Counted from the first letter of the stretch, positions 13,823 to 61,857 are shown. The stretch is DNA of 64,000 bases from Candidatus Freyarchaeum deiterrae (GCA_037305845.1 CP147778.1:1-64000), one strand, 5' to 3'. Made by a program: numbers and translations. Notes: generated by a model from the letters alone, not told the origin.

Positions 13823-14309
13823 TAGTTCATGCAAATGAAGGCCCTAAAAAGAAATTTAAACGGGGAAGCAAAACGGTAATCCGTTAGATTGCCTTAGTTA
13901 TAATTTCTTTTTTTTATAAACCATTTTGACTAATTTGTAAAAAAGCTTATTTGAAAAAGCTTGACGACACCTAGAGTCAAGCATTACTCCCTTTACCTGA
14001 ATTGTAGCAACGGTTTCTTCACAGGGTTTTCTAGACTTTTCTAGGCTGAGAGACTTTGAATACTGAAAGAGAGTTTTCCTGAGATGGCGTTTAAACCCTG
14101 AATTGTTTAATTCAACTCTCTAGAGAGATTGAGGTTTTCTCAAAAAATAAGTATACTCTAAAAAGTCTAATTATTTTTATATAAATTTAATAAAAGAGGT
14201 TATTTCTTGCGAAATATTCATTAAATATTAAGAAATATTGCTAAAAATATTTTTATATTGCGAAAACTAGAATATATAATACCGATTTAATAAAGTTAGG
14301 TGCGGGAAA

Positions 14310-35179: not shown

Positions 35180-35538
35180 ACCAGAATTTTCCCTCTTTAG
35201 TTAATTTTTGCGAATTCGTAAGAAAGTTGGAACTTGATAAAGCAGCTGAAATTGTTGAAAAGGCAGCAAAAGAACTAAACAGAATCCAAGGTGTAACTCC
35301 CGCATCGTTATCGAAATTAGGAGTATTAATGAACAGAGAGGTACATGATAAAGTAGATATTGCTTTATTAAAAAGCGAGATAATGGACTTGAACCTATCT
35401 ATGATCTCAAAGGCTCTTGCTGAGGCAATGGAACAAGCTGGCTTTGAACCACAACTTATAAATAAACTTAGGAGGCTTGTTCAAGCCTTAGTAAACTTTT
35501 ATAAATATTATATTGGAGATAAAGAAGGGGTGATATGA
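35176..35538 (+). CDS. csm2: Putative small subunit (Csm2/Cas11-like)
   Basis: 120-aa alpha-helical protein ending ALVNFYKYY, lying between cas10 and csm3. Confidence 0.65.
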   Translation: MNQNFPSLVNFCEFVRKLELDKAAEIVEKAAKELNRIQGVTPASLSKLGVLMNREVHDKVDIALLKSEIMDLNLSMISKALAEAMEQAGFEPQLINKLRRLVQALVNFYKYYIGDKEGVI

Positions 35539-36465
35539 ATGGGATTTCTCTTATTAGTAGTATCGGGGAAAACCAATGTTGATGGAATAACGATAGGATC
35601 TACAAGAGGAGATCCTCAGGCTCGCTTAGATTTAAAGACAGCGTTTAAGCCACATCCGAAAGTTCAGGGGATTCGCAAGGAAATACCTTACATCCCTGCA
35701 TCTTCATGGATCGGTGTTATGAGACATTTACTCGAAAAATATTATAATTTACCAGCGCAAACGCCACGAATCAGTAGAAGGCCAAACGATACAATCGTTG
35801 CACCAATTCATGAATGTGAAACTAAAGATGAGGTTTTAAAATGTCCTGTCTGTAAAATCTTTGTGAGACGTGAAGTTGTTGCATGGTTTGGTGATATGGA
35901 ACCCTTTGGTTCCTCATATATGGTTAACAAAGGAGCTATGGGCGGCGAGTACATAATAGACTCTGAAACCAACAAAGAAATCGTAAAGGTATTCATTAAA
36001 GATGAGGTAATTATACCACGAGATGCTGAAAGCGTCAGTATACCTAAGCAAATCGCAAAATCTAAACTAGCGTTAACTAGCAGTGGCAATGAAGTAAAAG
36101 GAGAAGAACTTGTGAAAAAAGGTTTCAAATTAGAGCCGATACCCCGACAGGTTCAAGTTGTAAGTGGTATATTCAAGTTTGATACAAAATTTGCTATGGA
36201 TAAACTTCTCTTCGATGATCTTAAGACCTTCTTCATAGGATTAGGTCTCGTAGAGGATCGTTTTGTGGGTCGCAGAGGATCCCGTGGATATGGAAGGATA
36301 GAGTTTGATGATCTTACATTTAAGTTGCGAACAAAAGAATTCTATGAGGGCAAAGGAGAAGAAATAACAATAAAAATACCTCACAAGAAACCTAGGGATA
36401 TAATCGCTAACTGGAAAAATATTGGGGAAACCTATGAGCAAGCTATTCCTAGTGCCTCAGAGTGA
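35539..36465 (+). CDS. csm3: Cas7-group RAMP (Csm3-like)
   Basis: GITIG, PYIPASSW.G..R.LLE, CPVCKIF and G-rich loop VGRRGSRGYGRIEF. Confidence 0.85.
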   Translation: MGFLLLVVSGKTNVDGITIGSTRGDPQARLDLKTAFKPHPKVQGIRKEIPYIPASSWIGVMRHLLEKYYNLPAQTPRISRRPNDTIVAPIHECETKDEVLKCPVCKIFVRREVVAWFGDMEPFGSSYMVNKGAMGGEYIIDSETNKEIVKVFIKDEVIIPRDAESVSIPKQIAKSKLALTSSGNEVKGEELVKKGFKLEPIPRQVQVVSGIFKFDTKFAMDKLLFDDLKTFFIGLGLVEDRFVGRRGSRGYGRIEFDDLTFKLRTKEFYEGKGEEITIKIPHKKPRDIIANWKNIGETYEQAIPSASE

Positions 36466-36484
36466 AGTAAATAATATAAAATGA

Positions 36485-37306
36485 GTGGTAATAGATATGT
36501 CGGTACCTCAAAATGTACTAGTAGAACTTGAGTTTACTTCACCGGTGTTTTTTCAAAGAAGTTGGCATGAAAGACCTTGGCGTATTCCTAGTGACTATAT
36601 TGTAAGAGCATTAGTATATTCATATGCATTATTACATAATGAGCCCAAGGAATTTTTGGATACCATTAATAAAGATTTAATTAGAATATCCTCTCTTTTA
36701 ATATTTCATAAGAACAACTTGTATGTTCCAATTTCTGGAATACGTGGATACAGACCGATTGATGGTAGTGATGTTATAGATTCGATGGATATTATGGGAA
36801 CTATCTCTAAAGTTCGTATCCCAAGAATTGAAGAAGCTGAACCTACTCCCTACGAAGAATATGTACTAGAAACATCAAAATACAAATGGGGTTTAATAAT
36901 TTCTTCCATGGATAACAAGCTTACAGAAAAGATTCTTCCAACTCTTAAAGTACTTGGAGACCTAGGAATTGGTGCAAAAAAGACCAAGGGAGGAGGAAGA
37001 TTTGACTTGCTATCTGTCCGACCACTTAAAGATTTTAATTTAGATGTCCACTGGAATGGATCAGGCATACTTATCTCGAGATACATACCATCAGTAAGTA
37101 AGAACTTACCCACTAAAATAAAAACCTTATATCAAGAAAGAGTTCAAATACGTTACAGTGAAAAAATTGTATATGAGTTCATGTCTATAGCCGAAGGCTC
37201 TGAATTAGAAATAGCAGACACAGGAAAGGTAGAGATCGTAAAAAATGACTTGGAATATGATACTCCATTATATTTCAGACCCTTATTATTGAGTTATGAG
37301 ACTTAA
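36485..37306 (+). CDS. csm4: Cas5-group RAMP (Csm4-like)
   Basis: LEFTSP, IPSD.I..AL, KVRIPR and G-loop GIGAKKTKGGGRF. Confidence 0.75.
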   Translation: MVIDMSVPQNVLVELEFTSPVFFQRSWHERPWRIPSDYIVRALVYSYALLHNEPKEFLDTINKDLIRISSLLIFHKNNLYVPISGIRGYRPIDGSDVIDSMDIMGTISKVRIPRIEEAEPTPYEEYVLETSKYKWGLIISSMDNKLTEKILPTLKVLGDLGIGAKKTKGGGRFDLLSVRPLKDFNLDVHWNGSGILISRYIPSVSKNLPTKIKTLYQERVQIRYSEKIVYEFMSIAEGSELEIADTGKVEIVKNDLEYDTPLYFRPLLLSYET

Positions 37307-37321
37307 TTACACATTGAATGT

Positions 37322-37511
37322 TTTTGGAAAGAATCTCATCAGTAAGAGTACTGAAAGATATCGGAAATGTAGGTAGTGTAGCTTACTGAAACGTTTCTTG
37401 TAAAAGCAGTTCTCCAGTAACGAGGATTGAAAGTAATGAAATACTAAGATCGTGAAACCTAAATCCCAAAAAATCTTGCAAAAGAAGTTCCGCAGTAACG
37501 CGGATTGAAAG
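37322..37511 (+). CRISPR. Degenerate mini-array (3 repeats at 37322, 37397 and 37475; 2 spacers)
   Basis: TTTTGGAAAGAATCTCATCAGTAAGAGTACTGAAAG; CTTGTAAAAGCAGTTCTCCAGTAACGAGGATTGAAAG; CTTGCAAAAGAAGTTCCGCAGTAACGCGGATTGAAAG; separated by 39- and 41-nt spacers. Confidence 0.8.
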
Positions 37512-37654
37512 TTAATTTTTTTGTCTGTTTTTGGAGTCACCTTAATGAAGTGTTAGCTTAAGTAGTCCTTAGCGGTAGGAATGTAACGACTAAGCTTTTT
37601 TAGAAATTATAGTAAGAGGAGATTTTTGTGTGGTTGGGCTTAGGTGGCTTTGAG

Positions 37655-38092
37655 TTACTGGTCGGTTTTTTCGTAGAATTTTTTTATGAATCTTTGGCTT
37701 GGGTTGTGGACGCTTTTCGCGTTTTCTAGGGCTTCTTTGGCGTCTTTTTCGTCGAAGAGTTCGCTTGCCGGTTTTCCGTCTTTTTCGATGCCGTAGACGC
37801 TGGGTATTCTTTTTAGTGAGAGTTCTCTTGAAATCTGCCTTATTTTTGGTATCTCTTTTTTGAACCATTCGGGGAAACTGTTGCTATAGTATTCCAGGAT
37901 GTCGCCTACGTCGTGTACTTTGGGATATTCCACTCCTAGTACTCTTAGACACGCTTTTAGGGATAGTTCCACACATTCTTGGGAGTATCTTACAGTGTCG
38001 GGGTAGTCGCCTCTTCCGAGTGCGGACTCGGCATCAGTGAGTCTGCTTTTCGCCCGCCGGAGGAAGTCTATGGCTATGCTGTCGGTTCTCAG
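37655..38092 (-). CDS. HEPN domain protein (partner of wHTH-MNT)
   Basis: Frame extends upstream of the called GTG to CTG 38092, overlapping the MNT stop. Motifs SQECVELSLKA.L, PKVHDV and R.PSVYG. Confidence 0.8.
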   Translation of the reverse strand: MRTDSIAIDFLRRAKSRLTDAESALGRGDYPDTVRYSQECVELSLKACLRVLGVEYPKVHDVGDILEYYSNSFPEWFKKEIPKIRQISRELSLKRIPSVYGIEKDGKPASELFDEKDAKEALENAKSVHNPSQRFIKKFYEKTDQ

Positions 38093-38829
38093 AGCTCGAT
38101 CACCTCACCTTCTTTCACATGGTCTTTGAGCTGCCAGTACCAGTCTCCTTTTGGGGTGATGCTTTTTTTGGCCCCCATCTCCTCCAGTTTTTTCTTTAGC
38201 TCTGAGAGCACGTTTTTCATAAAATTGTTTCTGTCGAATATTATCAAGGAGTCTGTGACCATGTCGAGGTAGAATGGTTGGTTCACACGGGCTTCCTCGG
38301 GCGTTAGTAAAACTGTATTTACGTTGGGGAACGCCCCGCTACTTTTCCATAGGGAGAGCTTAGTGGCGGTCAGCTCCTCGAAGAGGCATGAGGCATCTCT
38401 GACTCGTTCACTGTAGCTTTCGGGTAAGCCTTTTACCACTGTAAGGAAGTCTAGGTCGCTGTTCTTTCCGGCTTCACCGCGCGCAACCGAGCCGAAGAGC
38501 ACAACGGAGAAGACCCGACCATTGTACTTCTTGAAAAACTCGCTTACGAATCGCCGAATAAGGGGAATATACTCCCTCTGCCTTATCCGGCTCATCCAAC
38601 TATCGTCCACTACGCCGAGAACAATCATCATAGGATCCAACGCGCTGTATACCCCTCTGCCCCTCCTTTCGATATAACCTGCCTTGTGGAGTCGGGAGAG
38701 TAGAACTCTCAAATTTTGCCCCTCAAGGTTTAGCTCCTCTTTGAGCTTCTCTATAGTAAAGGGTTCGCTGCCGTAGTTGAGATATATCTTCGAGTAAAAC
38801 TGGCCGAGCCACGCAGGAACCCACATCAT
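38089..38829 (-). CDS. wHTH-fused minimal nucleotidyltransferase (MNT) antitoxin
   Basis: N-terminal wHTH (LSRLHKAGYIERRGRGVY) and LFGSVARG..SDLD MNT motif. Confidence 0.85.
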   Translation of the reverse strand: MMWVPAWLGQFYSKIYLNYGSEPFTIEKLKEELNLEGQNLRVLLSRLHKAGYIERRGRGVYSALDPMMIVLGVVDDSWMSRIRQREYIPLIRRFVSEFFKKYNGRVFSVVLFGSVARGEAGKNSDLDFLTVVKGLPESYSERVRDASCLFEELTATKLSLWKSSGAFPNVNTVLLTPEEARVNQPFYLDMVTDSLIIFDRNNFMKNVLSELKKKLEEMGAKKSITPKGDWYWQLKDHVKEGEVIEL

Positions 38830-39174
38830 ATAATCACCTACTTATTAATAATTACCAAATAGTACACTAATTTAAAAGCCTTGCTCCAAAGTGACAAAAT
38901 AACGTAAAGTAGAATGATTCAACCAAGAAACACATGGCTATCTCTAAGCCCGGCCAGCTTAGTTACATCTAGTTAATTTCAACGTTTGTGGTTCAACATA
39001 TTTATCACAATCGAGCAGTTTTAAGGATACGCGTCTAATACTCTGGAATTTTAAGGGATAAACAAGAAAAAATAAAAACAAGAACGATGCCAAAATAAGA
39101 GAGAAGATATTCCTACAACTAGTTTTACGATACATTATGGAGGGAGAAGGAACATAATCGACCTCTGGATAGAA

Positions 39175-39987
39175 ATGGTCGCCACAGACTCCGGAAGAGT
39201 GAACCCCTTCACCGGACACCTCGTAAGAGGAGCCCTGCTGAACCTAATCAAAAACGCCGACCCCGACCTAGCCCAAAAACTCCACGAACCCCACCAGCAG
39301 AGACCCTACAGCGTCACACCCGCCGCACCCGTAGCCCACCAAAGAAACATACGCGAAAACCTCTGGTGGATACAGCCCGGAGAACACGTAAGATTCCACG
39401 CCGGATTCCTACAAGACCACATAGGAGAAAAAGCCTTCCAAAAAATCCTAGAAGGCAGGCCGGAAATAAAACTCGCAGAAACCCCCTTCACACCCGTGAG
39501 AATAGAACTCAAGAGGACAACGTACGAAGAACTGATGAAAACCGCCCAACCAGAACCCGTAATAACCATTAGGTTCCACTCACCCACCCAGCTCCCAATA
39601 ATAGGAAGAGACTTCCCCCTATTATTCCCAGACCCAAGATACGTGTACGGAAACCTAGCCCGACTATGGAACCAAAACGCACCACCACAAGTACAGGTAG
39701 ACACCCAGCAGCTACACGACTGGATAGAAAAAAACGTCTACATACGCAAATACCAACTACAAACCAGAGAGATAGACGTAGGAAAACAGGTAAAACTCGC
39801 AGGATTCACAGGAACCCTAGAATACCACCTAAACAGCACAGATGAATACGCACCTTGGATAAACATACTCACACGGTACGCAACCACAGCCAACACCGGA
39901 GCCAAAAGAACCACCGGAATGGGAGCCACACAAAAAATAGAACACACCAAACAAAACCAAAAACAAACACCAAAAGAAAATTCCTAA
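39175..39987 (+). CDS. cas6: CRISPR endoribonuclease Cas6
   Basis: LHE..QRPYSV, F.SPT, GF.G...Y and C-terminal GAKRTTGMG G-loop. Start may be ATA 39154. Confidence 0.9.
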   Translation: MVATDSGRVNPFTGHLVRGALLNLIKNADPDLAQKLHEPHQQRPYSVTPAAPVAHQRNIRENLWWIQPGEHVRFHAGFLQDHIGEKAFQKILEGRPEIKLAETPFTPVRIELKRTTYEELMKTAQPEPVITIRFHSPTQLPIIGRDFPLLFPDPRYVYGNLARLWNQNAPPQVQVDTQQLHDWIEKNVYIRKYQLQTREIDVGKQVKLAGFTGTLEYHLNSTDEYAPWINILTRYATTANTGAKRTTGMGATQKIEHTKQNQKQTPKENS

Positions 39988-40054
39988 ACGTCAAACCAAA
40001 CTACAAAGAGACCAGAACAAAATGGCCAAGCAAAACAAGAAGAACTATTTAAAA

Positions 40055-40126
40055 TGTTCGAGTGAACCCTCTCAAAAGAAGCCTTTATGAGACTCCAAAA
40101 CAAAAAATAGATAATAAAATATAACC
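40055..40126 (+). promoter_or_regulatory. Second CRISPR leader, homologous to 27969-28040
   Basis: TGTTCGAGT.AACCCT..CAAAAGAAGCCTTTAT...AATATAACC, the same 72-nt distance to the first repeat. Confidence 0.8.
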
Positions 40127-40238
40127 CTTGCAAAAGAAGTTCCTCAGTAACGAGGATTGAAAGTAGCGTATTGCTCAGTTGTCGGGATCCAAATTGTCGA
40201 ACTTGCAAAAGAAGTTCCTCAGTAACGAGGATTGAAAG
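40127..40238 (+). CRISPR. Mini-array, 2 repeats and 1 spacer, with its own leader
   Basis: Two identical CTTGCAAAAGAAGTTCCTCAGTAACGAGGATTGAAAG repeats (C>A variant) flank a 38-nt spacer. Confidence 0.9.
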
Positions 40239-40312
40239 TGTAAATATGCGACAAATCCATGATGTAATTATATTATAATTTAATAATATTATAAAATTTT
40301 GGATTGAGTCAT

Positions 40313-40750
40313 TTATTCTAAAAATTCTTGAGGAGTAGAAAGATTGAGTTCTGGTATTCTTTCAAAGTGTTTTTTATTTTTAGTTATTAAAATAAGTTTT
40401 GTTATTCTCGCCTGTGCACCTATGAAAACATCTCTTATCTCTAAGGGCGACCCTTTCTTTTCCAACTGTACGTAAATCTCTGATGCCTCAATTGCTGTTT
40501 GTTCATCAAAAGAAAGTATTTGTGTGTGACTGAAAAGAGTGTTTGCTTCGCTCATCGCTTTTTCGGGTTGAGGGCTTAACCTAGTTCCGCGATAAATCTC
40601 AAAAACCGTTACAGCACTCACGTAAGCCGCATATTGTCGTTCATCTATCTTGTTGAATATTTTAACGGCTTCGGGTTGGGGTTTGCGCTTAAGATAATCA
40701 ATAATAACATCTGTATCAAGCATTATTTTTTGGGTTTCCATGTTTTCCAC
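40313..40750 (-). CDS. vapC: PIN domain toxin (VapC)
   Basis: LDTDVIID, VTVFEI, RDVFIG and T.N.KHFERIPEL motifs. Confidence 0.9.
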   Translation of the reverse strand: MENMETQKIMLDTDVIIDYLKRKPQPEAVKIFNKIDERQYAAYVSAVTVFEIYRGTRLSPQPEKAMSEANTLFSHTQILSFDEQTAIEASEIYVQLEKKGSPLEIRDVFIGAQARITKLILITKNKKHFERIPELNLSTPQEFLE

Positions 40751-40959
40751 ATCCGTCTAGCATCATCCATAAAGTCCTCTGTACTTTCTATATGCTCCCA
40801 TGCTCCAGCAAGCTCCTTGAGGGAGGGGGATTTGATAAAAACAATTTTACCCTCCTCTTCCTTAACTATCAATTCGTCACCAATTTTCACATCTATCTTT
40901 TTTCGAATCTCTAGAGGAATAGTGATCTGAAATTTTCTTGTTACTTTAACCTTCAACAC
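40723..40959 (-). CDS. AbrB/MazE/SpoVT family antitoxin
   Basis: KVTRKFQITIP.EIR....GD.L motif; overlaps vapC. Confidence 0.9.
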   Translation of the reverse strand: MLKVKVTRKFQITIPLEIRKKIDVKIGDELIVKEEEGKIVFIKSPSLKELAGAWEHIESTEDFMDDARRMWKTWKPKK

Positions 40960-41192
40960 GAGACCTCCGTACTACATATAGTAGTACGAATATATAAAAA
41001 CCTGCTTATCAACCCCTACCTAGAAGTCTTAACCATATCTAGCACCCCCAATAAGCTTCAACTTGTAACTACTTTTTCAGTATGAATTTCTTACACTTTG
41101 TTTTCGTTTATTTTGAAAATTTTTGAGCCAGTGTTTAGAGTTATTGCTGTTTTCCATTTATTCATAACTGAACACCACCATTTTTTATTTTA

Positions 41193-41299
41193 TCTGCAAA
41201 AGAAGTTCCTCAGTAACGAGGATTGAGAGAGCGTGAGGAACAAAAATCATGTTAAATATGGCATTCTCAGACTTGTAAAAGTAGTTTCTCAGTAAGAGG
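41193..41299 (+). CRISPR. Degenerate repeat-spacer-repeat unit
   Basis: TCTGCAAAAGAAGTTCCTCAGTAACGAGGATTGAGAG, a 42-nt spacer, then truncated CTTGTAAAAGTAGTTTCTCAGTAAGAGG. Confidence 0.8.
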
Positions 41300-41432
41300 T
41301 GGCCATGTTATATTTGAGAGTGGAGTTAGATACTCTCGTGTTCTTCCAAAGCTCACTGAACAGAATCTTACCACCTGCATGAGCCAAACATTCCAAAACA
41401 GACCTCCTACTCCTCCTTCTAAGAACGAGTCT
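41293..41432 (-). pseudogene. wHTH fragment homologous to the N-terminus of 48538-49239, cut off by a CRISPR repeat
   Basis: RRSVLECLAHAGGKILFSELWKNTRVSNSTLKYNM versus LRAVLGELALAGGETRFSELWKSTEIS(K)STLDYNL. Confidence 0.65.
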
Positions 41433-41478
41433 AAAGAGTATACAGAACGCTTTTTGAAGTGGTTGTGCAGTTCGTGAT

Positions 41479-41856
41479 ATGGAAGCTTATCTATATTTTT
41501 ATATGTCTTTGATATATCTTAATATTGGTGTTAGTATGGATGTTACGATAAATCAGATTATGGAAATTCTTTCTGAAGGACCGAAAACTCCTGACGAAAT
41601 TGCTAAAAGGTTAGGGGTTTCATGGGCTACTGCAAATGGTAAGCTTCACCGATTGGTCGGAAGTGGAAAGGCCGACTATATCAGAAAAGGTAGGGTAAAT
41701 GTTTTTTATCTCAAATCGCCTCAGAGCATTAGATTCAATGTACCTCCATGGGTTAACCCCAAAAGCCTTAGCGAATTGGCAGAAGAGCTTGAGGAGTATT
41801 TTGAGGAAGGGATAACCGCAGAAGAAGCTGTTAGAAGGGAGCGTAGAAAATATTGA
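41479..41856 (+). CDS. wHTH putative antitoxin
   Basis: LSEGPKT..EIAKRLGVSWATA HTH and acidic C-terminus; overlaps the PIN gene. Start probably 41536. Confidence 0.75.
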   Translation: MEAYLYFYMSLIYLNIGVSMDVTINQIMEILSEGPKTPDEIAKRLGVSWATANGKLHRLVGSGKADYIRKGRVNVFYLKSPQSIRFNVPPWVNPKSLSELAEELEEYFEEGITAEEAVRRERRKY

Positions 41857-42332
41857 AAATCGCGCTTGATACGGGAGTGCTTGTTGTCTCCATTAAGAGG
41901 ATAGGCGAGAAATATCATCAAGAAGCTGTTCAAATCGCAGACCGCATTAAAAATTTTAAAAGCAACTGCGTATCTTCCTCTCTCGTACTTATCGAACTTC
42001 CCGGTGCTCTGGCTTCCTCCACCACAATGCCAATTGAGAAAATATACACAGCAGAAGCCTCAATACAGGAAAACTTTAATCTAGTAATCCTGCCCTTCCA
42101 CCCATATGTTGACACGACTGTGAACCTGATACTTGAATTCCGCGAATTAAAGCGAAGACTAGGTATCGAAGCAGCGGACTTTCACCACTTAGCCACAGCT
42201 ATAGATGAAAGGTGCGAAGCCTTTGTAACGGTGGATGACCACCACCTACTAAAAGGAGAGACAAAAGAAGCCCTAAACAAATACATCAAAATACTAAACC
42301 CGAAGGAAGCCCTCGAAATTTTCAAACAATAA
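41853..42332 (+). CDS. vapC: PIN domain toxin
   Basis: LDTGVLV, LIEL, ADFHHLATA and FVT.D motifs. Confidence 0.85.
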   Translation: MKIALDTGVLVVSIKRIGEKYHQEAVQIADRIKNFKSNCVSSSLVLIELPGALASSTTMPIEKIYTAEASIQENFNLVILPFHPYVDTTVNLILEFRELKRRLGIEAADFHHLATAIDERCEAFVTVDDHHLLKGETKEALNKYIKILNPKEALEIFKQ

Positions 42333-42540
42333 TCCTTCCGTTCTCCCGAATCATAACCCAAAAATGTTTAAAGATTATTCAGCATGTTGAATTTTTACAC
42401 TTGAGATAGGGAGAAAACTGGATCACAGAGACAGAGCCAAAACAAGTTGACAGAGAGCGAGGATTTTCTGTCCAACACCGTTAAACACAGCAAAGCAACC
42501 ATCTTTATCCAAGAAGCGAATCTAAAGTTTTTATGGTAGG

Positions 42541-42763
42541 GAGGACATTCAAAGCTTATGCATGCCAAGAAGAGATTATGAACCAGTAAACTTTGACGGA
42601 GAAACGCTCACGCTCAAGGCTAAAAACGAAAACGCCCTTACCACCAGGTACGCTCTAGCCAATATACTAAGCAGACTGCTGTACAGCAAGGGAGTGCTCG
42701 TCCTGAAGTTCAAACCACTGAAAGGCCAGAACGAAACCCTAACCAACGAGATAGAGCTCCTCA
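42541..42763 (+). pseudogene. Truncated copy of the unknown gene at 46688-47086, fused to a CRISPR repeat
   Basis: FDGETLTLKAK..A.TTRYALANIL.RLLYSKGVLVLKFKPL.G.NETLTNEIE is shared; the sequence switches to repeat at GAGCTCCTCA. Confidence 0.75.
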
Positions 42764-42849
42764 GCAACGAGGATTGAAAGCCTAATACTTGGTTCAAGTT
42801 CTAATTGTTGTCTTGCAAAAGCGGGTCCTCAAATAACGAGGATTGAAAG
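42756..42849 (+). CRISPR. Degenerate repeat-spacer-repeat unit
   Basis: 3' half repeat GCTCCTCAGCAACGAGGATTGAAAG, a 31-nt spacer, then CTTGCAAAAGCGGGTCCTCAAATAACGAGGATTGAAAG. Confidence 0.8.
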
Positions 42850-42904
42850 TCAGCAACAATAAATACTTAACTACATAAAGGATGTGTGTAGAGAAGGGGG
42901 TAGA

Positions 42905-43327
42905 ATGAGCTATCACTCGAAAAAAACAAAGCAGTAGCGCAAAAGCCCACTGAGATTCTTCATGGAGGAGATATGGATAAACTCCATGAGCTTTTCTTCA
43001 CCGGATTTTGTTTCACATTTTTCGGGAATCTCTCCTATGAACCATGAGCAGTATATTGAGTTCAACAGAGCGGTTATGGCAGCGTTTCCCGATTTTAGGC
43101 AAACGGTTAAGGATATGATTGTTGAGAGAGATAAAGTTATGCTTTGCATGGTAGGTAGGGATACGCGTACAGGAAATTTTCAGGATATTCCGCCTACTGG
43201 GAAACGGTTTGAAATTACGGGGATGGCTATACGCCGAATAGTAGGTGGCAAAATCATTGAAGAGTGGGCGAATCCTGATCAACTAGGTTTGATGCAGCAA
43301 ATTGGAGCAATTCCGAAACGGCGATAG
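42905..43327 (+). pseudogene. SnoaL-like ester cyclase, 5' end frameshifted
   Basis: AFPD, E.DKV, PPTGK.F, GKI.EEW and D.LGLMQQIG motifs. The typical N-terminus SLEKNKAVA lies out of frame after ATG 42905. Confidence 0.65.
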
Positions 43328-43526
43328 AATATTTAGAGCTTGGTGTTGAAAGGTAGGGTGTTTATTTTTTATTTTTTTAATCTTTGAGGAAATAAGTGTG
43401 TATTCCGATTCGTCTGTTTTGGGGAGAAGTTTTTATACTTCTTTGTGTAACTTTTAGTATGTTTTTAGTGTCTGGCAGGCAAGCTGCGATTCGGGTTAGC
43501 TGTTTCGACTGTTTTAGGGTTTAGTA

Positions 43527-43955
43527 GTGTCGGCTTCTGTTTTTGGAGCAGTGGTCGTGTTGATGAATATTATTGATAGTGTCAAAGAGCGTTTGGAAAA
43601 GAATGATAATGTTGTCTTCGCCTATGTGTATGGATCCTACGCTAGGGGAAAAGCTACTAGGTTTAGCGACTTGGATATTGCTGTTTTTTTAAGGGACACT
43701 GGTCATGAGGGGTTTAGGGAGCTGCTAGCCGAGTTGCCTGTGGATGCGGATGTTGAGTTCGATGTTAGAGTGTTGAATGATGCTCCTCCGCTCTTCAGAT
43801 ACAATGTTGTCAGGGAGGGAAAACTGTTGTTCGTCAAGGATAAAGGGATTCACGAGACCTTTGTTTACGACACTCTTGTCTCGGCGCTAGAGTTGAGAGA
43901 GGCTCTAACCAGCATGAGGGAGGAGAGGTTGAGGAGGGTTCTTGATGCTCTTTGA
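43527..43955 (+). CDS. Minimal nucleotidyltransferase (MntA-like antitoxin)
   Basis: AYVYGSYARG...SDLDIAV and LNDAPP motifs. Start probably 43563. Confidence 0.9.
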   Translation: MSASVFGAVVVLMNIIDSVKERLEKNDNVVFAYVYGSYARGKATRFSDLDIAVFLRDTGHEGFRELLAELPVDADVEFDVRVLNDAPPLFRYNVVREGKLLFVKDKGIHETFVYDTLVSALELREALTSMREERLRRVLDAL

Positions 43956-44364
43956 AACTGTTGCCGACGCTGTTAAGGTCTTGGAAGAACTCAGGGAGAA
44001 GAGCCTAGAGGAGATAGCTGGAGACACCGTTTTGCTCGGAAGCGTTCTGTGGTATCTTTACGTGACTGTGCAGGGCTGCATAGACATAGCCCTCAAAACA
44101 ATCTCAAAGCTTACTCTCAGAGCACCTGAAAGTTACGGTGACGCGTTCAAAGTTCTCAGAGAAGGAGAACTGATATCGGAAGAGCTAGCCAAAAGCCTTA
44201 TCGCAATGGCCCGTTTTAGACACGTTTTAGCTCATGTATACACCAAGCTTGACTTGGATCTGATATACGATATGTTGCACCACGACATTGAAGAGGTCAA
44301 AGAATTCTTGAAGACTTTAGCCGCGAATCTCCGAGAAAGAAACATAGAGTTAAGCGAATTCTAA
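43942..44364 (+). CDS. HEPN/DUF86 RNase toxin (HepT-like)
   Basis: PESYGDAF and FRHVLAHVY (Rx4H) motifs; overlaps the MNT gene. Confidence 0.9.
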   Translation: MMLFETVADAVKVLEELREKSLEEIAGDTVLLGSVLWYLYVTVQGCIDIALKTISKLTLRAPESYGDAFKVLREGELISEELAKSLIAMARFRHVLAHVYTKLDLDLIYDMLHHDIEEVKEFLKTLAANLRERNIELSEF

Positions 44365-44456
44365 CCAGCCAAAACACAGCCGTATATCTTGATCTAAACT
44401 TATTACCGCGATCTAAAAACATAATTATTATGTTTGCGCTGTTTTCGATATCATTG

Positions 44457-44568
44457 TCTGCAAAAGAAGTTCCTAAGCAGCGAGGATTGAAAGTCCAGAA
44501 TCTCGGCTACGCTGCAACTGCGGATCGTTTACTTGTAAAAGAAGTTCCTCAGTAAAGAGAATTGCATC
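44457..44568 (+). CRISPR. Degenerate repeat-spacer-repeat unit
   Basis: TCTGCAAAAGAAGTTCCTAAGCAGCGAGGATTGAAAG, a 38-nt spacer, then CTTGTAAAAGAAGTTCCTCAGTAAAGAGAATTGCATC. Confidence 0.8.
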
Positions 44569-44674
44569 AGTATGGTTTACGCGTCCATCGTGCGGATACA
44601 TGAATTCTACCTGATAATATTTTTATGCAGATATGATGTTATTTACTCAGATGCGATTTTGGAGCGTGGTGTAA

Positions 44675-44911
44675 GTGCAGAAACTTGTTTTTACCGTGGT
44701 TGTTGAGAGGGATGAGGACGGCTACCTCGTAGCTTCAGTTCCAGAGTTGCCCGGTTGCCATACCCAAGCAAGAACCCTAGACGAATTAATGCTGAGAGCA
44801 AAAGAGGCCATAGAACTCTACATTGAGGTAGAAAGTAAAATAGTTGAGGAAATTAAAAAGAGAGAACTGGTTGGAATCCAGTTTGTCGTGGTTACTGAAA
44901 ATGAGCCTTAA
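44675..44911 (+). CDS. hicB: HicB family antitoxin
   Basis: VVERDEDG..VASVPELPGCHTQ..TLDE motif. Confidence 0.9.
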   Translation: MQKLVFTVVVERDEDGYLVASVPELPGCHTQARTLDELMLRAKEAIELYIEVESKIVEEIKKRELVGIQFVVVTENEP

Positions 44912-45128
44912 ACCCCTACCCGCCGAAAAGATAATCCGCGTCCTTAAAAAAGTGGGATTCGAAATCGTAAGGCAGAAGGGAAGCCATGTTATTCTCAAAA
45001 ACCCAGAAGGAAGAATCACTGTTGTCCCCCTCCACAAGGGTGAAGAAATAGGCAGAGGACTCCTACTTAAAATTATTAAAGACGCTGGCTTAAAAAAAGA
45101 AGAATTCCTAGACCTCATCAGAAAATAG
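44901..45128 (+). CDS. hicA: HicA family toxin
   Basis: L.K.GF..VRQKGSH and VVPLH..EI..GLL..I motifs; ATG at 44901 overlaps hicB. Confidence 0.9.
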   Translation: MSLKPLPAEKIIRVLKKVGFEIVRQKGSHVILKNPEGRITVVPLHKGEEIGRGLLLKIIKDAGLKKEEFLDLIRK

Positions 45129-45237
45129 CTACCACACTTCTACTAACAAAGAGAAGAAGCAAAAAAAGATAAAAATTTGGAAACTAAACAAAAGGGTGCA
45201 TAGAATTGATAATTGACCTCATCTTTTTCAAATAATT

Positions 45238-45387
45238 TTAATTCGGACTAATCGATTTAGTTTTCTTCATTGGTGTGGTTTTGGGACTTTCGATTTTATT
45301 AGTCAGGTCTGTTAATTTAATGCTACCTCTTTCAGCTAGTATTTTAAGTATATCCAAATTTAACCTGTCAAGGTCCATCGGGAGCAT
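45238..45387 (-). pseudogene. Short HTH-regulator remnant
   Basis: MLPMDLDRLNLDILKILAERGSIKLTDLTNKIESPKTT resembles the first helices of a wHTH, then stops. Confidence 0.4.
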
Positions 45388-45673
45388 GATATCTAAAGAG
45401 GTTCTATTATGACTAAGGGCAGAAAACTAGCGGAAGCGATATCACATCACACGATTATTATCTGAACGCATTTTTCTTTCACGAAAGGCAATACGGGATA
45501 TTCCAGCAATGCCTTTAAAAGAAGCAATAATAGGGCTTCTTTCTCCTAAGAAAAGGCCCCAAAAAATAGGCAAAAACCGAGCAATTCTGCACCGCCCAAT
45601 CAACTGCAAAAATCTTATTTAGGAACGCTGCCTTTATCTCTTTTTCAAAATAGAACCCGGAACCCCGTTGGAG

Positions 45674-46096
45674 CTATGGAATTGGTTTATATTTCTCCAG
45701 AAACTCTTCTGGTGTGAGTACTTCTATTTCGTTCTCTACCGTTCTGAAATCCCTCTTATTTCTCGTTACAAGCACTTCGTACGAGGGTTTCGCGGAGTAA
45801 AACTGTATTGAATCCTCAAAATCTCTCATTCTTTTTTCATCAAATGAGCGTGAAACTATTTCCTCGGAGAGCGGCACAATTTGGAATCCCTCTATGATCT
45901 TTTTCGCATCTTTCTTTGCTTCCTCTTCGCTGGAAATTCTGGCTCTTAAAAAATACAGAATCGGAGGAGTCAGGGCGGAAATGTAGCCTTCAGCCCTACC
46001 CGCCCTCACAAGCCGTACCATAGCAATAGAGGCCTTCCAACCATCTCTTCTCTCCAGTACATCAACAAAAATATTTACGTCCAAAAAAACCTTCAT
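45674..46096 (-). CDS. PIN domain toxin
   Basis: FLDVNIFVDV, DFEDSIQ and VTRNKRDF motifs. Confidence 0.85.
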   Translation of the reverse strand: MKVFLDVNIFVDVLERRDGWKASIAMVRLVRAGRAEGYISALTPPILYFLRARISSEEEAKKDAKKIIEGFQIVPLSEEIVSRSFDEKRMRDFEDSIQFYSAKPSYEVLVTRNKRDFRTVENEIEVLTPEEFLEKYKPIP

Positions 46097-46356
46097 TTAA
46101 TCAACCATTCCACGGCCTCTCTGATAACTTCCCGATCCTCCTCGAAGGGATTGTACGGAAGCTTACCCACAAGCTCAAGCAACTCGTCGTCAAAATCCAG
46201 CGAAGGAAACTCCTGCTTCAGCTCATTCCTAATTTCCTCAACCTTAGAATACACTGAAAATTGCCTCTCAATCCTTCTAAGTCTTTGCTCAACTCTAACA
46301 AGCTCTCTTCTAAGCTCTAGAATCTCATTCCTTATATTCTCCATCGGCGCTTCCAT
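46093..46356 (-). CDS. Putative antitoxin
   Basis: Small acidic coiled-coil protein overlapping the PIN start (ATGA). Confidence 0.65.
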   Translation of the reverse strand: MEAPMENIRNEILELRRELVRVEQRLRRIERQFSVYSKVEEIRNELKQEFPSLDFDDELLELVGKLPYNPFEEDREVIREAVEWLIK

Positions 46357-46687
46357 ACCCTTTAATTTGCATTTCCAACTTAAATATTTTTATACAACCG
46401 TTCCATCCCATACCCAAAAACCGCGAGAACAATTCACTTCAACCAAAAAACCCTCAATAACCTCCTAAAACCCACCCTACGATAATATTTCCTGAGAAAA
46501 TTTTTTAGAGAATCCTAGTAATAGTTTAGTAAAGAATTCTTTTGAGGTTAAAACAGATAAGCGGAAATTCTTAAGAAAAAACAACATTCACGGATTAATT
46601 GCAAAACAAGTCAAAACTTCCACTCAATTATTGTGAAGACAAAAATGTACCCGGTATCCCTCAACTAAGGACATGTAATAGAAGCGG

Positions 46688-47086
46688 TTGAATGATATGA
46701 CCAGAAAGCATTTTAAAAAAATGGAGGAAGCACAATTTTCTAGCACAACAACGCTGGACTCCCTTGAATCAGTGTTCCAGAGAGAGAAAAATTGGAAACC
46801 GGTGCAAGAGGATATTCAGAGTCTATGCATACCAAGCAGCGACTACGAAATCGAAAGCTTCGACGGAGAAACCCTCACACTAAAAGCTAAAACCGAACAA
46901 GCTATCACCACCAGGTACGCCCTAGCCAATATTCTCGGCAGACTGTTGTACAGCAAGGGAGTGCTTGTCCTGAAGTTCAAACCTCTGGAAGGACTAAACG
47001 AAACCCTAACCAACGAGATAGAGTTCCTCATAAAGTATCCCAGCGAAATCGCCTCCGGAAAAATAAAAATAATAAAAGGCTGGTAA
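46688..47086 (+). CDS. Hypothetical protein (possibly a 3' gene fragment), present in three copies in the island
   Basis: Homologous to 42541-42763 and 57296-57493; no recognisable family. Confidence 0.5.
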   Translation: MNDMTRKHFKKMEEAQFSSTTTLDSLESVFQREKNWKPVQEDIQSLCIPSSDYEIESFDGETLTLKAKTEQAITTRYALANILGRLLYSKGVLVLKFKPLEGLNETLTNEIEFLIKYPSEIASGKIKIIKGW

Positions 47087-47315
47087 ACGATCCCCCTTTA
47101 GAATTGAGAAGATGATTCTAAAATAGTGAAGAGGGGCTTTTTAGTAACGCTTTTCTTTTTCTACGTTCTTGCTAGGTGATACTCACCAATCTTAATTAAC
47201 AAGAAGCGTTTTTAGAAAATTAGACGCTAAGCATTCAATAGCGCAGCTTTTCTATTTTTTTATTGCCTAGGAAAACCCAATGAGTTTATACTTTCACTTA
47301 CCTATGTGGATCGGT

Positions 47316-47352
47316 GTTTCGATTCCTGTCGCCGAGGAACTGCTTTTGCAAT
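47316..47352 (-). CRISPR. Solo diverged CRISPR repeat in inverted orientation
   Basis: Reverse complement is ATTGCAAAAGCAGTTCCTCGGCGACAGGAATCGAAAC (37 nt), with a TTCCT/AGGAA hairpin. Confidence 0.75.
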
Positions 47353-47470
47353 TTGGAATCTGATTAACGGAACCCGAGTGAAAATTTCAAATTCTTTCCC
47401 ACAGTAGGTTACTTAAACATCAACAAAATCGGTACTGATTCAATTTTACGTATAGTTGTTTGTCTGTGAG

Positions 47471-47866
47471 CTATAGGTTTTCAGTATCCACATCTACGAG
47501 TTTGAGGCCTAATCCTTCAAGTCTCTTGAAATGTTTTTTGTTCAACGTCCAGAGTGGTGCAGCTTTTGAAATACAGATGGCTCCTGTCAGTAGGTCTCTT
47601 TCTTCTAAGAGTTCTCCTCTGCCGCTTAGCTCAGCCCAAATCTTGCTTGCTGTGCTTATACTCTCGTTACCTAGGGGTAGCACTTCGAATGCGTTCTCAA
47701 CAGTTCTTTTAGACTCTTCCGGGTTTACCCCTGCCCTAATTTCTCCTCTGACGTACTCGTACTCGGTTATTGCGGTTATGCAGGCATCGTAGACTTCAAC
47801 AAACTTTTCAAGTTTCCCGATTTTCTCCAAAGTAATTAAGGCATCCGTCTCAACCACAATCCTCAT
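47471..47866 (-). CDS. vapC: PIN domain toxin (VapC)
   Basis: VETDALI, ITEYEY..G, RDLLTGAI and WTLNKKHF motifs. Confidence 0.85.
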   Translation of the reverse strand: MRIVVETDALITLEKIGKLEKFVEVYDACITAITEYEYVRGEIRAGVNPEESKRTVENAFEVLPLGNESISTASKIWAELSGRGELLEERDLLTGAICISKAAPLWTLNKKHFKRLEGLGLKLVDVDTENL

Positions 47867-47888
47867 GGGGCACCCTCCAGTGGCTCTG

Positions 47889-48155
47889 CTAGAGTGTTTC
47901 TTCTTTTTCTGAATCTTTTAGCTTGAGGTTTTTTCTGAGGGTGCTGTGGGACTCTGAAACGTGGCTCTCAACAGTGTTAAATCTCTTCTGTAGGCTTCTC
48001 GCGGCCAACTTTCTTCGCAACCTTCTGTTTTCTTCCACAAGCTCGGCTAGAAACTTACTCCACTCTTTTCCTCCTCTTATCTTATCAAGATCTTCCTTAA
48101 CCTTAACTAAAACTGGGATTGTAGTGTATTTTCTGTCAGAACTCAAGCGGGTCAC
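47889..48155 (-). CDS. Putative VapB-type (RHH-like) antitoxin
   Basis: YTTIPV..VKE.L...G...WS.FL..L pattern, directly upstream of the PIN gene. Confidence 0.7.
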   Translation of the reverse strand: MTRLSSDRKYTTIPVLVKVKEDLDKIRGGKEWSKFLAELVEENRRLRRKLAARSLQKRFNTVESHVSESHSTLRKNLKLKDSEKEETL

Positions 48156-48375
48156 CGTCTAAAAATAAATTTCCATAATGATGTAATTATATTATAACTT
48201 AACAATATTATAAAATTTTGGATTGAATTTGATGTAGGACCTTTTACTTTAATACTTGGTTCCTTAACCATTTTTAGCTATCTGCGAGCATCCCACGTAA
48301 ACTTGTGCTGAACTTGAAGCGCCAAAGATTCGAAGACCAGATGTTCTCCGTGGGAAGCCTTCAAAGATCTATGAA

Positions 48376-48411
48376 CTTGCAAAAGAAGCCCCTCAGCAAC
48401 GAGATTGAAAG
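48376..48411 (+). CRISPR. Solo degenerate CRISPR repeat
   Basis: CTTGCAAAAGAAGCCCCTCAGCAACGAGATTGAAAG. Confidence 0.75.
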
Positions 48412-48537
48412 CTCTCAGAATTCAAACTCATTCCTTAGGATAGCATCATCCCGCATAAACAATTCTTTAGTGCCCGAAGATTCACCAATGGACATTAATT
48501 AACACAAATGGTAAAAATTGAAAGCAACTACTTACCC

Positions 48538-49239
48538 TTAGATATCTCCCATTAATTTTTTAAGCAGATCTTCTTTTGATACGATCCACGTGAGTTCCCT
48601 CTTCTTCTCGTACACGTAAACCAAGGGAACATGGTAGTTAACTGCTAATTTGTAGTAAGCTATGGTTGCAGGTTTGGTCGCAGAGGTACAATCCATTACT
48701 AAAACATAATTCCTTATCAGGTCAAAGAGATTCGCTTCGACTCTCGATTCTATGATTTCAACACTGCTTATCTCCTCATCCTCAAGCAAGCACCAACTAA
48801 CATTACTAGGAGCTACACCCTTCCATTCCGCAGCACATCCGTATGTCGTAACAACTGTAACACTACTGAACGAGAAGCCCGCCCCTGCAAGAAGGTTTAA
48901 AGCGGTTCCAGTTTCAGACTCACTCCTACCACCCCTCTCACCCAAAAGACCGAGATAAGCGTAAGAAATTCTAGGAGAATCAAAAACATAACACAAAGGA
49001 GTCTTATACTCCAACCTAATCAATCCCCCCCTCACGAGAAACAATACCTTTACCTGCAAGAACGGTCAAATTGTAATCTAGAGTAGACTTGATATTTCAG
49101 TGCTTTTCCAAAGCTCGCTGAAACGGGTCTCTCCACCAGCAAGTGCTAACTCTCCTAAAACCGCCCTCAAATTTTTTCTCTCAAGAGCAGATTTATAATC
49201 TGTATATCTTACAGCTTGTATCCCTCTAATTCTTTTAAT
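48538..49239 (-). pseudogene. wHTH-CARF regulator, frameshifted
   Basis: C-terminal VMDCTSATKPATIA...PLVYVYE is a CARF-type motif. The N-terminal wHTH is broken by a 1-nt deletion near 49090 and a 1-nt gain in a G7 run (49025-49031), with stop codons between them. Confidence 0.7.
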
Positions 49240-49670: not shown

Positions 49671-50939
49671 TTGAGGCTGGATGAAGTGATTCTTGATATT
49701 AAAACTCCAATATGGACTGGTGACATTGACTCAAAAAGCAATTCGCTTAAATCTACAGGGATTATGGGTTCTATTCGCTGGTGGGTTGAAGCAATCTTGA
49801 GAGGAATGTATAATTTTGCTTGCGATCCCATAGATGACAATCCCCAAAGCCTAACAAAACGTTGCCCAACAACAAAAGAAAATAATCGAGAAATTTCTCA
49901 GTATTGTTCCGCTTGCCTCATTTTCGGAGCAACGGGAATGAGAAAGCTGTTTAGATTGCATATTGAGGGAGGACATGAGATATTTAATGACAGACCAATC
50001 AAGATAATGCCAAAAGGTAGAACTGGAGGATGGTACTTGGGAAGTGGACTTGGTGGAGAAATAAACCTAGATATTATTTCCTTAGACAAGGATTTCGATA
50101 AAAGTCTAATTTCTGTTCCTCTAACTATTACAGCCAAATTGGGTGCAATAGGGGCGAGAACCCAAAATGGCTATGGTATAGTAGAACTCAAGGAATTTCC
50201 AGAAATAAAAATTGAGGATTTCAAAAATTCGGTGGGTAAAATTACAGATACCACAAGACTTGCTAAATTGAAGATTGATGTAAGAAAAGAAGTAAGACAA
50301 GAAAACTGTATATCTTTACCGAATATAAAAGAGATGTTTTTTGCCAAAATCCAATTTGAGGCAGATAATGATTGGTGGAAGGAAGTAGATGGAATAGAGG
50401 AAAGAGGGCAAACGGGAGATAGAGATTATTATGAAGGGTGCGCTAATGATGCAAGAATGCATAAGTGGATAGATTCTGGTTCCGTTCCTATTGTTCCGGC
50501 GATAAAGAATTGGTTAAGGTATGGTTATGGAAAAAGCCTCTGGCAAACGGGAGATCGAAATAAAGACAGAATAATAGATAAATGGCTATTTGGAACTATT
50601 AGAAATGATAAAACCGCCTCTAAAGTCATCATCTCCTGCGCGTACCTTGTGAGTAATAACATATGGGAATTTCGTATCTGGGGATGGATTCCTGAAAATA
50701 GCTTACCAGATGAATTTGATAGAGAAAATTTTTTGGACAGCTTGAATAAAAGTTTAGACGGAAAGGGTTCAGCAAAACTTCCGTGGAAAAATATTTTTGG
50801 TAACGGTACCAAAGAACATAGACTTTCAGTTTGGCGAGAATATAATTCATCGAGAGATACTGTTAAGTCAGGTGAGGAAGGTATTGATAACTATCTTGGA
50901 AGCCTTTTAAGTGGCGGGAGGAAATTCAATGAATCATAA
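49671..50939 (+). CDS. cmr1: Type III RAMP Cmr1
   Basis: TPIWTG, GIMGSIRWW.EAI.RG, C..C.IFGATG and GAIGARTQNGYG motifs. Confidence 0.9.
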   Translation: MRLDEVILDIKTPIWTGDIDSKSNSLKSTGIMGSIRWWVEAILRGMYNFACDPIDDNPQSLTKRCPTTKENNREISQYCSACLIFGATGMRKLFRLHIEGGHEIFNDRPIKIMPKGRTGGWYLGSGLGGEINLDIISLDKDFDKSLISVPLTITAKLGAIGARTQNGYGIVELKEFPEIKIEDFKNSVGKITDTTRLAKLKIDVRKEVRQENCISLPNIKEMFFAKIQFEADNDWWKEVDGIEERGQTGDRDYYEGCANDARMHKWIDSGSVPIVPAIKNWLRYGYGKSLWQTGDRNKDRIIDKWLFGTIRNDKTASKVIISCAYLVSNNIWEFRIWGWIPENSLPDEFDRENFLDSLNKSLDGKGSAKLPWKNIFGNGTKEHRLSVWREYNSSRDTVKSGEEGIDNYLGSLLSGGRKFNES

Positions 50940-52074
50940 ATACGACTTTTATGCAGCTTTTTATATCAAGGAAAAAGAGGATGTCGATAATCTAACTAAC
51001 GGTTCTGGAAGGTATGATGAACTACGTGATATTTTATCAAGAATAATGATTTTGAGTACAGCGCTAGGGGTAAAAGAAAAGTTCGATGACCGTAAGGGTA
51101 GACCAAACGAAATTAATCCTAAAGATTATGCGAGGGTAGGTGAGGGTAATCATGTCTCAGGTTTAAAGGCTCTTACCCATACTAATGGAAACTTCAATGA
51201 GTATATAGCTTGCAAATTATCTGAACTTGCTCTTTTAGGTATTAATGCACCAATTAACGTTTCTATTCTGCCAATAGGAAGTTGGGTTTTAGAGTTTCCA
51301 ATTACTCTTACTAAGCCTTTCATTTCAAAGGATGACGTTCCATTATATATCATAGATAATCCTATAAAGAAAGACAAGGTCTTTGGTGTACCCTTTACCT
51401 CAGCGATGGCATGGAAGGGGAACCTAAGATGGACTATGATGAAATTTCATTTAGAATCTCATATAAACGAGCCTAATAAATTTGCTGAAATACGCCTCAA
51501 GCATACACTTTTGTTCGGAACAGAAAAAGGAACAGAAGATGTACCAAAGGGATGGGCGAAATATCTAGATAAACTTTGTCCCAATGCAAGGGAAAACTAT
51601 CAAGATAAACTCAAGAAAAAATTTGGAAGGGACGATATACCCAATCTTGCAGGAATGCTTCACTTTTATCCTACTTTTTGGGACAGAATTGATATGGAAG
51701 TTATTAATCCACATGATAGAAAAACCAAAACTGGCAAGAACCCTATATACTTTGAAGCCGTGCCAGAGGGTTCAAAAGGCCTCTTTAGGCTTCTCTATAT
51801 TCCTTTACACTGGACTAATCTGCGAGATGACGAGTTTAAGAAAATGATTTTACAGGATTTAAGAGATGTCGTAGCTGGGCTTAAAGAGATGTTACTTTTC
51901 TATGGCTTTTCAGCAAAGAAGTCCATAGGATATGGAGTAATTGAAGACAGCTTTGACAAAGAGGTAAGTACGCTTGCGTTGAAGGATTTTATCAGAGGTA
52001 CTGAAAAATTTGGGAACCTTGAAGAATTGGAGAACAAAATTGAGAGCTTCGTTAGAGGAAGAGACTATGAGTGA
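50911..52074 (+). CDS. cmr6: Type III RAMP Cmr6
   Basis: L.KPFISKDD, WKGNLR, EVINPHDR, PIYFE.VP and GFSAKKSIGYG motifs. Confidence 0.85.
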   Translation: MAGGNSMNHKYDFYAAFYIKEKEDVDNLTNGSGRYDELRDILSRIMILSTALGVKEKFDDRKGRPNEINPKDYARVGEGNHVSGLKALTHTNGNFNEYIACKLSELALLGINAPINVSILPIGSWVLEFPITLTKPFISKDDVPLYIIDNPIKKDKVFGVPFTSAMAWKGNLRWTMMKFHLESHINEPNKFAEIRLKHTLLFGTEKGTEDVPKGWAKYLDKLCPNARENYQDKLKKKFGRDDIPNLAGMLHFYPTFWDRIDMEVINPHDRKTKTGKNPIYFEAVPEGSKGLFRLLYIPLHWTNLRDDEFKKMILQDLRDVVAGLKEMLLFYGFSAKKSIGYGVIEDSFDKEVSTLALKDFIRGTEKFGNLEELENKIESFVRGRDYE

Positions 52075-61839: not shown

Positions 61840-61857
61840 ACTTTTTGTGTTTGTAGA

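Follow-up and report, generated by a model that had tools for sequence, protein, structure and literature searches.

CRISPR repeats as probable joints for cassette exchange in a toxin-antitoxin-rich region of Candidatus Freyarchaeum deiterrae

Positions 37322-48411 of a 64,000-nucleotide stretch of Candidatus Freyarchaeum deiterrae DNA (GCA_037305845.1, CP147778.1; hereafter the window, bases 1-64000 of a single 3,576,204-bp contig) carry seven toxin-antitoxin (TA) pairs, numbered here TA1 to TA7 from the left, which alternate with stray copies of a CRISPR repeat. Comparison with relatives indicates that this part of a CRISPR defence island is probably a cassette region shuffled by recombination, with the CRISPR repeat serving as the preferred joint. 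The architecture is recurrent and is best read as an emergent arrangement, not as a dedicated system. A sequence-only reading of the same DNA had described the interval as a TA array and offered two non-exclusive models: the repeats collect TA cassettes in an integron-like manner inside a former CRISPR array, and each repeat unit encodes a guide RNA. The alternation of TA genes and repeats is indeed present, in an interval that additionally holds cas6, a broken SnoaL-like gene and the uncharacterised gene orfX. The first model stands insofar as cassette content differs among relatives with junctions inside repeats, but the term "integron-like" is an overstatement; the second fared poorly, as described below.

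The Freyarchaeia genome is complete, manually curated and derived from wetland soil (PMC11291895); its companion paper lists the CRISPR types, and toxins are absent from its main text (PMC11529989). The prefix G000 marks coordinates on this genome, G002 is Ca. Jordarchaeum madagascariense, and L068 and similar labels denote other compared sequences, including those of a further relative from metagenome Ga0315314.

Exchange of gene blocks at CRISPR repeats

A 3.9-kb block (44494-48411) comprising HicBA, two PIN pairs, orfX and an inverted repeat is absent from contig C271 of G002, and the junction lies within a repeat: the left flank of the repeat at 44457 (92%) is followed by one repeat and then by the right flank of the repeat at 48376 (87%). 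Homologs of HicB and TA6 occur in G002 on contigs other than C271. The spacers at the two ends of the block (44494-44508 and 48412-48428) start with similar sequence, and that of G002 is intermediate between them; flanking homology may therefore extend ~15 nt past the repeat. Another G002 contig, C49, runs in the order leader, repeat, TA, orfX, repeat, PIN pair, repeat-spacer-repeat, PIN, and its cassettes differ from those of the window. L068, from the Ga0315314 relative, has six repeat units in 8.8 kb and carries pairs of a minimal nucleotidyltransferase (MNT) with HEPN or HepT in four of the gaps.

Single cassettes are likewise found with different neighbours. In the window, TA4 (MNT and HepT, 43527-44364, plus strand; PF18765 and PF01934) is followed by a spacer and HicBA; after TA4, L071 has HicBA without the spacer, G002 a CARF gene and L068 a short array. 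In all four sequences the switch takes place at the next repeat. The CARF unit, a repeat with a spacer-like segment (48376-48450, plus strand) that is common to G002 and L070 without conservation of the seed, has three different upstream neighbours across the sequences. When 70 repeat units were grouped by upstream and downstream flank classes, five non-leader upstream classes and nine downstream classes were shared; of the 22 unit pairs alike in a non-leader upstream or a downstream flank, only one is alike on both sides by this count, and one further pair shares the leader and the downstream flank.

Solo repeats are hybrids carrying markers of both sides, their 5' variants going with the upstream flank and their 3' variants with the downstream flank (L071, L062 and G002:C324). 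In the L071 solo repeat, the 5' variant accompanies the TA4 flank and a degenerate 3' end accompanies the HicBA flank; relative to G000, the spacer at the 44457 site has been lost and this hybrid repeat is left. The degenerate HicBA-side repeat recurs, together with 60 nt of flank, at 86555. A 1296-bp MNT/HEPN block is present twice at 99% identity with both copies beginning at a repeat end, indicating that copying of blocks occurs besides their loss.

Ten of 50 mosaic junctions touch a repeat, compared with a mean of 1.35 and a maximum of 6 in 2000 shifts restricted to intergenic DNA (~7-fold), and six of the 50 are filled exactly by a repeat (mean 0.14, maximum 3 in the same control). This test was relied upon because a per-base break-rate control was judged too weak, as intergenic homology decays fast between these species. 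The outcome that the sequence-only reading had proposed to look for by strain comparison, cassette gain or loss ending at repeats, is in this respect borne out by the relatives.

Neither this enrichment nor the hybrid repeats that join flanks of different repeats would be predicted if the repeats were passive debris of arrays interrupted by insertions, with no part in cassette turnover. That alternative is already weakened and we consider it improbable, even though several features of the region fit it: many of the genes are fragments, a single loop variant is common to four repeats at 84.6-89.8 kb, as would be expected where an array end has broken up, and in the view of Shmakov et al. the mini-arrays next to type III loci are degraded repeats (bioRxiv 10.1101/2023.03.03.530964). 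The distribution of TA genes also fits it: the stretch at 68-75 kb, with ~seven further TA-like modules and just two degenerate repeats, is as rich in TA genes as the present region, 14 of 21 PIN matches lie outside the island, and at the second cas6 locus an AbrB gene and a PIN fragment separate cas6 from its CARF gene in the absence of any repeat. Within the island, TA pairs thus accumulate with or without repeats.

Contigs from other sequencing runs offer one further comparison. A contig of run X3 contains 41204-42699 without a difference, but ahead of this segment it has 1954 other bases, joined inside the 41193 repeat, which hints at within-species variation at this site. Contig depth in this run goes from 51 to 181 across the region and was left unused, since contig depth is not copy number. 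Most other contig joints correspond to paralogous positions of this genome, such as array ends, the second cas6 and other orfX copies. A search of viral contigs with the repeat pattern gave no match.

Several points weigh against repeats as joints of cassette exchange. The relatives are fragmented metagenome-assembled genomes or metagenome contigs; 40 of the 50 mosaic junctions lie away from repeats; the junction sites are partly reciprocal and thus represent fewer than 50 independent events; and gain versus loss of the 3.9-kb block cannot be polarised. The TA-dense stretch at 68-75 kb speaks against "integron-like" in particular. Repeat-to-repeat crossover leaves the origin of the first repeat-gene join unexplained, and one-sided junctions within 9 nt of a repeat edge number eight, one of them doubtful, where ~2.6 are expected. 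This excess could point to a Cas1-linked step.

Possible capture by Cas1-Cas2

A rival explanation is the integration of kilobase gene blocks by Cas1-Cas2 as giant spacers, by which the array would actively capture TA genes. Cas1-Cas2 holds a prespacer of fixed short length, which argues against it. Several repeats do adjoin truncated genes within 0-8 nt: a repeat end in L071 runs, within 3 nt, into the middle of the SnoaL gene, while the end of cas6 in L068 is joined within 3 nt to a repeat start. A precedent exists in the 2-kb pseudo-spacer SiL-E1 of Sulfolobus islandicus (PMC3718332). However, not one of the 26 intervals that contain genes lies between identical repeats, and the two repeats flanking an interval resemble each other no more than randomly re-paired ones do (p = 0.58); the duplication expected of spacer-type integration is therefore absent. 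Later decay and shuffling could have erased this signature, and we regard capture of this kind as very improbable.

An apparent small integration event was found elsewhere in the genome, at G000:117642-117755, where an exact 37-38 bp duplication surrounds a 38-nt insert identical at 38/38 positions to 1640727-1640764. Removal of the insert restores the reading frame. This is an apparent off-target spacer integration into a gene, frameshifting it, of which Cas1-Cas2 would be the maker. The 5' flank suggests CCT as the protospacer-adjacent motif (PAM), or TCA in the opposite reading, and CCA is obtained from a weak second match; this is an initial PAM clue for this uncultured Asgard lineage. The genome has a single cas1, at 66 kb. 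Promiscuous Cas1-Cas2-Cas4 might also join long DNA ends to repeats, creating repeat-bounded TA and defence cassettes that are later permuted by recombination. We rate this as a long shot; if true, the CRISPR locus would be a gene-capture platform without an integron integrase.

Toxin-antitoxin pairs of the region

All seven TA pairs placed here by the sequence-only reading are supported by Pfam (PADLOC was also searched). The pairs are adjacent, co-oriented and of known families, with both genes recognised in five and the PIN toxin alone in two. TA1, on the minus strand, consists of a HEPN toxin (37655-38068; PF05168), whose gene has no in-frame ATG, GTG or TTG start near its 5' end, and an antitoxin combining a winged helix-turn-helix (wHTH) with a minimal nucleotidyltransferase (38089-38829; PF01909). 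TA2 (40313-40959, minus strand) pairs AbrB (40723-40959; PF04014) with PIN/VapC (40313-40750; PF01850), and TA3 (41479-42332, plus strand; Pfam) pairs a wHTH protein with PIN. TA4, the MNT/HepT pair given above, is followed by TA5, HicB and HicA (44675-45128, plus strand; PF15919 and PF07927). TA6 (45674-46356) and TA7 (47471-48155), both on the minus strand, have PIN toxins (PF13470 and PF01850, respectively) preceded by candidate antitoxins of 87 aa and 88 aa that had no Pfam or PADLOC match. By sequence, these are ordinary protein-antitoxin modules, each toxin lying beside a protein partner.

An AT-rich stretch of ~50 bp that precedes the TA7 partner (48178-48228) is duplicated at 40259-40308, just after the 40127 unit; the copy at 40259 is apparently an orphan TA promoter facing into the mini-array.

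CRISPR repeats and mini-arrays

The 37-nt repeat builds three large arrays of 65, 79 and 79 copies, the 65-repeat main array of the window lying at 28041-32866 (plus strand; this array and the units below are from the repeat search). Approximately two dozen stray copies are found nearly all at 37-90 kb, the CRISPR island, and about half of the repeat-like matches outside the three main arrays fall within 37-49 kb. Stray repeats match the array repeat with 0-10 mismatches, while shuffled genomes searched with up to 11 mismatches gave no match. A repeat copy is present at each of the seven positions listed by the sequence-only reading; four units had been taken as exact repeat-spacer-repeat, and only the one at 40127-40238 is clean. 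The repeats were also said to separate most TA modules, and five of the six TA boundaries do have a repeat, but none lies between HicBA and the next PIN pair.

The first mini-array (37322-37511, plus strand) has three repeats, the first degenerate, and directly follows csm4. The unit at 40127-40238 (plus strand), a perfect repeat-spacer-repeat, is the only one with a leader, a copy at 40032-40126 (plus strand; flank class U0) that matches the leader of the array at 28041 with 85% over 132 nt including the repeat. The 37322-37511 unit lies upstream of both cas6 and the leader and is therefore outside any former array starting at 40055, as proposed in the sequence-only reading. On the plus strand follow a repeat, a 42-nt spacer and a repeat without its last 8 nt (41193-41299); a 26-nt half repeat fused to a gene fragment, with a 31-nt spacer and a repeat (42755-42849); and a repeat-spacer-repeat with both repeats degenerate (44457-44568), which is the single hybrid repeat in L071 and the left junction of the block absent from G002. 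The repeat at 47316-47352 (minus strand) is solo, inverted and degenerate. Five of six mini-array spacers are 38-42 nt long, within the array-like range of 35-42 nt, the exception being the 31-nt spacer at 42781. Contigs from other runs span the units at 37322, 42755, 44457, 47316 and 48376 with at most two differences, while no bridging piece for units 40127 and 41193 was found among the listed contigs of other runs.

Beyond the region, G000:84601-89916 holds the old end of the second array, into which gene blocks are interleaved, its four repeats being those with the common loop variant. Further mini-array or solo repeats occur at G000:191966-192077, 3559147-3559183, 71480-71516 and 75116-75148, and the 192-kb site corresponds to arrays of six repeats in G004 and three in G005. 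Repeat variants with hairpin-preserving double changes (window 37475-37511, L050 and L065) also form whole arrays in relatives, so stray repeats may stem from different arrays. Two copies of a different CRISPR repeat of ~30 bp lie at G000:2683146-2683242 beside the second cas locus, with a longer array in L065.

The mini-arrays as possible guide RNAs

The second model treats the units as crRNA-like regulators of the CreA, CreR or CrePA type that steer the I-B Cascade to repress TA or cas promoters. The genome encodes the I-B effector (cas8b/7b/5b) and two cas6 genes, and an 8-nt handle is retained, by a lenient measure, in 29 of 36 first repeats, several with a hairpin, against 17 of 36 last repeats. 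Mini-arrays are common in composite archaeal I-B loci, where TA cargo targets have been reported (bioRxiv 10.1101/2023.03.03.530964). However, last-repeat decay is also found in two of the three large arrays, so handle retention fits array ends as well as guides; a leader is present at one unit only; and every toxin has an adjacent protein partner.

According to bioRxiv 10.1101/2024.12.27.630466, a validated crRNA-like regulator has ~16 bp of pairing beside a PAM, and targets are predicted at 37-46 bp upstream of the start site. Seed runs in TA and cas promoters were compared with a null built from 217 main-array spacers, using no PAM, CCN, TCN or TTC/TTA/ACT; knowledge of the PAM is based on one perfect and one weak protospacer. 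No mini-array spacer exceeded the null in the island promoters under any of these sets, and the few low p-values fit the number of tests; the PAM-anchored search that the sequence-only reading had called for thus returned nothing above background in these promoters. Among the relatives, p < 0.03 was obtained for one of 64 tested spacers or flanks. Spacers at orthologous sites are unrelated, and the one shared spacer, that of the 48376 unit, has a variable seed. The single notable genome-wide match is that of the 44494 spacer, with 13 seed positions after TTC at G000:2792604 (minus strand), ~97 nt upstream of an unrelated 662-aa gene; it comes from one of many tests, disagrees with the PAM clue and is a weak lead compatible with chance. 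A 13-nt match of the 42781 spacer to 48250, which needs a 2-nt offset, and a seed or PAM lead from T-rich flanks were both rejected as chance. A general guide function thus appears decidedly unlikely, and one or two units may be regulatory. The locus serves as a warning that mini-arrays adjoining TA genes need not be regulatory guides.

Other genes and surrounding defence modules

Within the region, cas6 (39175-39987, plus strand; PF10040) has a 95% identical paralog at G000:2695045-2695896, and a SnoaL-like gene (42907-43327, plus strand; PF07366) contains an early stop codon. The gene orfX (46697-47086, plus strand) encodes an uncharacterised protein of 129 aa; in all relatives for which the gene's surroundings were read, it lies in CRISPR-cas loci. 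A truncated copy (42539-42763, plus strand) is fused to the repeat core at a 9-nt microhomology; fragments also occur at 57311 and G000:69678, and the gene is often truncated. We regard it as a candidate new CRISPR-associated gene on the basis of its sequence context. A scan of metagenome contigs for orfX found nothing, and the atlas gave no match at or above 0.9. The combination of orfX and the inverted repeat was considered as a transposon and dropped, since its ends are not conserved.

To the left of the region lies a minimal type III module (33155-37306, plus strand) consisting of a short HD-Cas10 (674 aa), a small subunit, Csm3 and Csm4; identification as type IV-C was dropped, as Csm3 and Csm4 profiles score far better. 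At the right edge is a CARF-like gene (48538-49059, minus strand; PADLOC CARF match), and farther right follow a type III-C module with Cas10c (49671-57114, plus strand) and type I-B cas3, cas5b, cas7b and cas8b (58668-63913, minus strand). A 302-aa open reading frame (ORF) at 57740-58648, directly after cas3, has no Pfam, NCBIfam or PADLOC match. Elsewhere in the window are a tandem of three paralogous ORFs of ~240 aa each (12075-15020) and a 925-aa ORF with 141-bp tandem units (15647-18424). In L001 (15230-18230), a HerA-like helicase gene and a 491-aa unannotated gene form a pair inside the island that is conserved in G002 and G005.

A model for repeat-jointed cassettes

The data presented above have led us to propose a model for the region whereby type II TA pairs accumulate in the island, be repeats present or not, and gene blocks would break arrays up while repeat-to-repeat deletion would shrink them to solo repeats or one-spacer stubs, as the region in part displays. 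Crossover within the dispersed 37-bp repeats would then delete, copy and re-pair blocks of 1-4 kb, which the genome comparison supports. The catalysts may be host homologous recombination and microhomology repair, with no dedicated integrase. From known TA biology, TA blocks would be expected to outlast spacers and other genes, because deletion of a TA pair would be costly to the cell through putative addiction, giving the end state TA, repeat, TA, repeat. The locus offers a concrete, testable route by which small TA and defence modules that lack mobility genes could move within one defence island or from one to another: dispersed CRISPR repeats, common to the genus, would act as portable homology for cassette exchange.

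Comparison with known systems

Sedentary chromosomal integrons (IntI, attI, attC) resemble the region in having blocks of one or two genes, among which TA and defence genes abound, with a repeated site between them and permutation among strains. TA cassettes stabilise superintegrons. Unlike integrons, the site here is a CRISPR repeat, blocks face both ways and are often truncated, and the majority of junctions lie away from the site. An integron would be expected to exchange cassettes at its repeated site; here such exchange is enriched and not exclusive (10/50 junctions). The island encodes no tyrosine recombinase (PF00589), the single genome match being at 3.475 Mb, and the separating element is the CRISPR repeat, not an identified attC, for which no model was run. 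The region is integron-like in pattern and does not belong to the integrons.

The stand-alone repeats and mini-arrays with TA cargo that Shmakov et al. described in CRISPR-cas loci (bioRxiv 10.1101/2023.03.03.530964) share with the present ones the two-repeat units, a degraded distal repeat, a composite archaeal I-B and III-C locus, TA enrichment and variable genes. That system has one positionally conserved mini-array with a PAM-flanked promoter target, whereas the present region has many units in alternation with the cargo, the search gave no target, and the breakpoints are the repeats themselves. The CreTA, CreR, CrePA and CRISIS elements (bioRxiv 10.1101/2024.01.05.574328; 10.1101/2024.12.27.630466) also combine repeat-like elements beside toxin genes with a type I effector; unlike these, the units described here have no seed-and-PAM match to neighbouring promoters, protein partners for the toxins and unconserved spacers.

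Literature searches, with incomplete coverage, gave no paper describing CRISPR repeats as joints of cassette exchange, and the parts have been described before: gene shuffling and TA cargo at mini-arrays, cas cassettes containing TA pairs, a 2-kb pseudo-spacer and CrePA. The vapBC and MNT-HEPN pairs of archaeal cas cassettes (PMC4390879, section 8) are of the same TA families, lie in CRISPR variable regions and were proposed to help retain the locus, but the rearrangement there was ascribed to insertion sequence elements, not to CRISPR repeats. Repeat-to-repeat recombination, also between arrays, has been reported for archaeal arrays of the Sulfolobales (PMC4390879), and together with SiL-E1 (PMC3718332) it offers the parallels of deletion, duplication and exchange via repeats and of kilobase DNA between repeats. 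Those cases concern events on the scale of spacers, or one insertion flanked by perfect repeats, whereas in the region described here many gene blocks are reassorted genus-wide between non-identical repeats.

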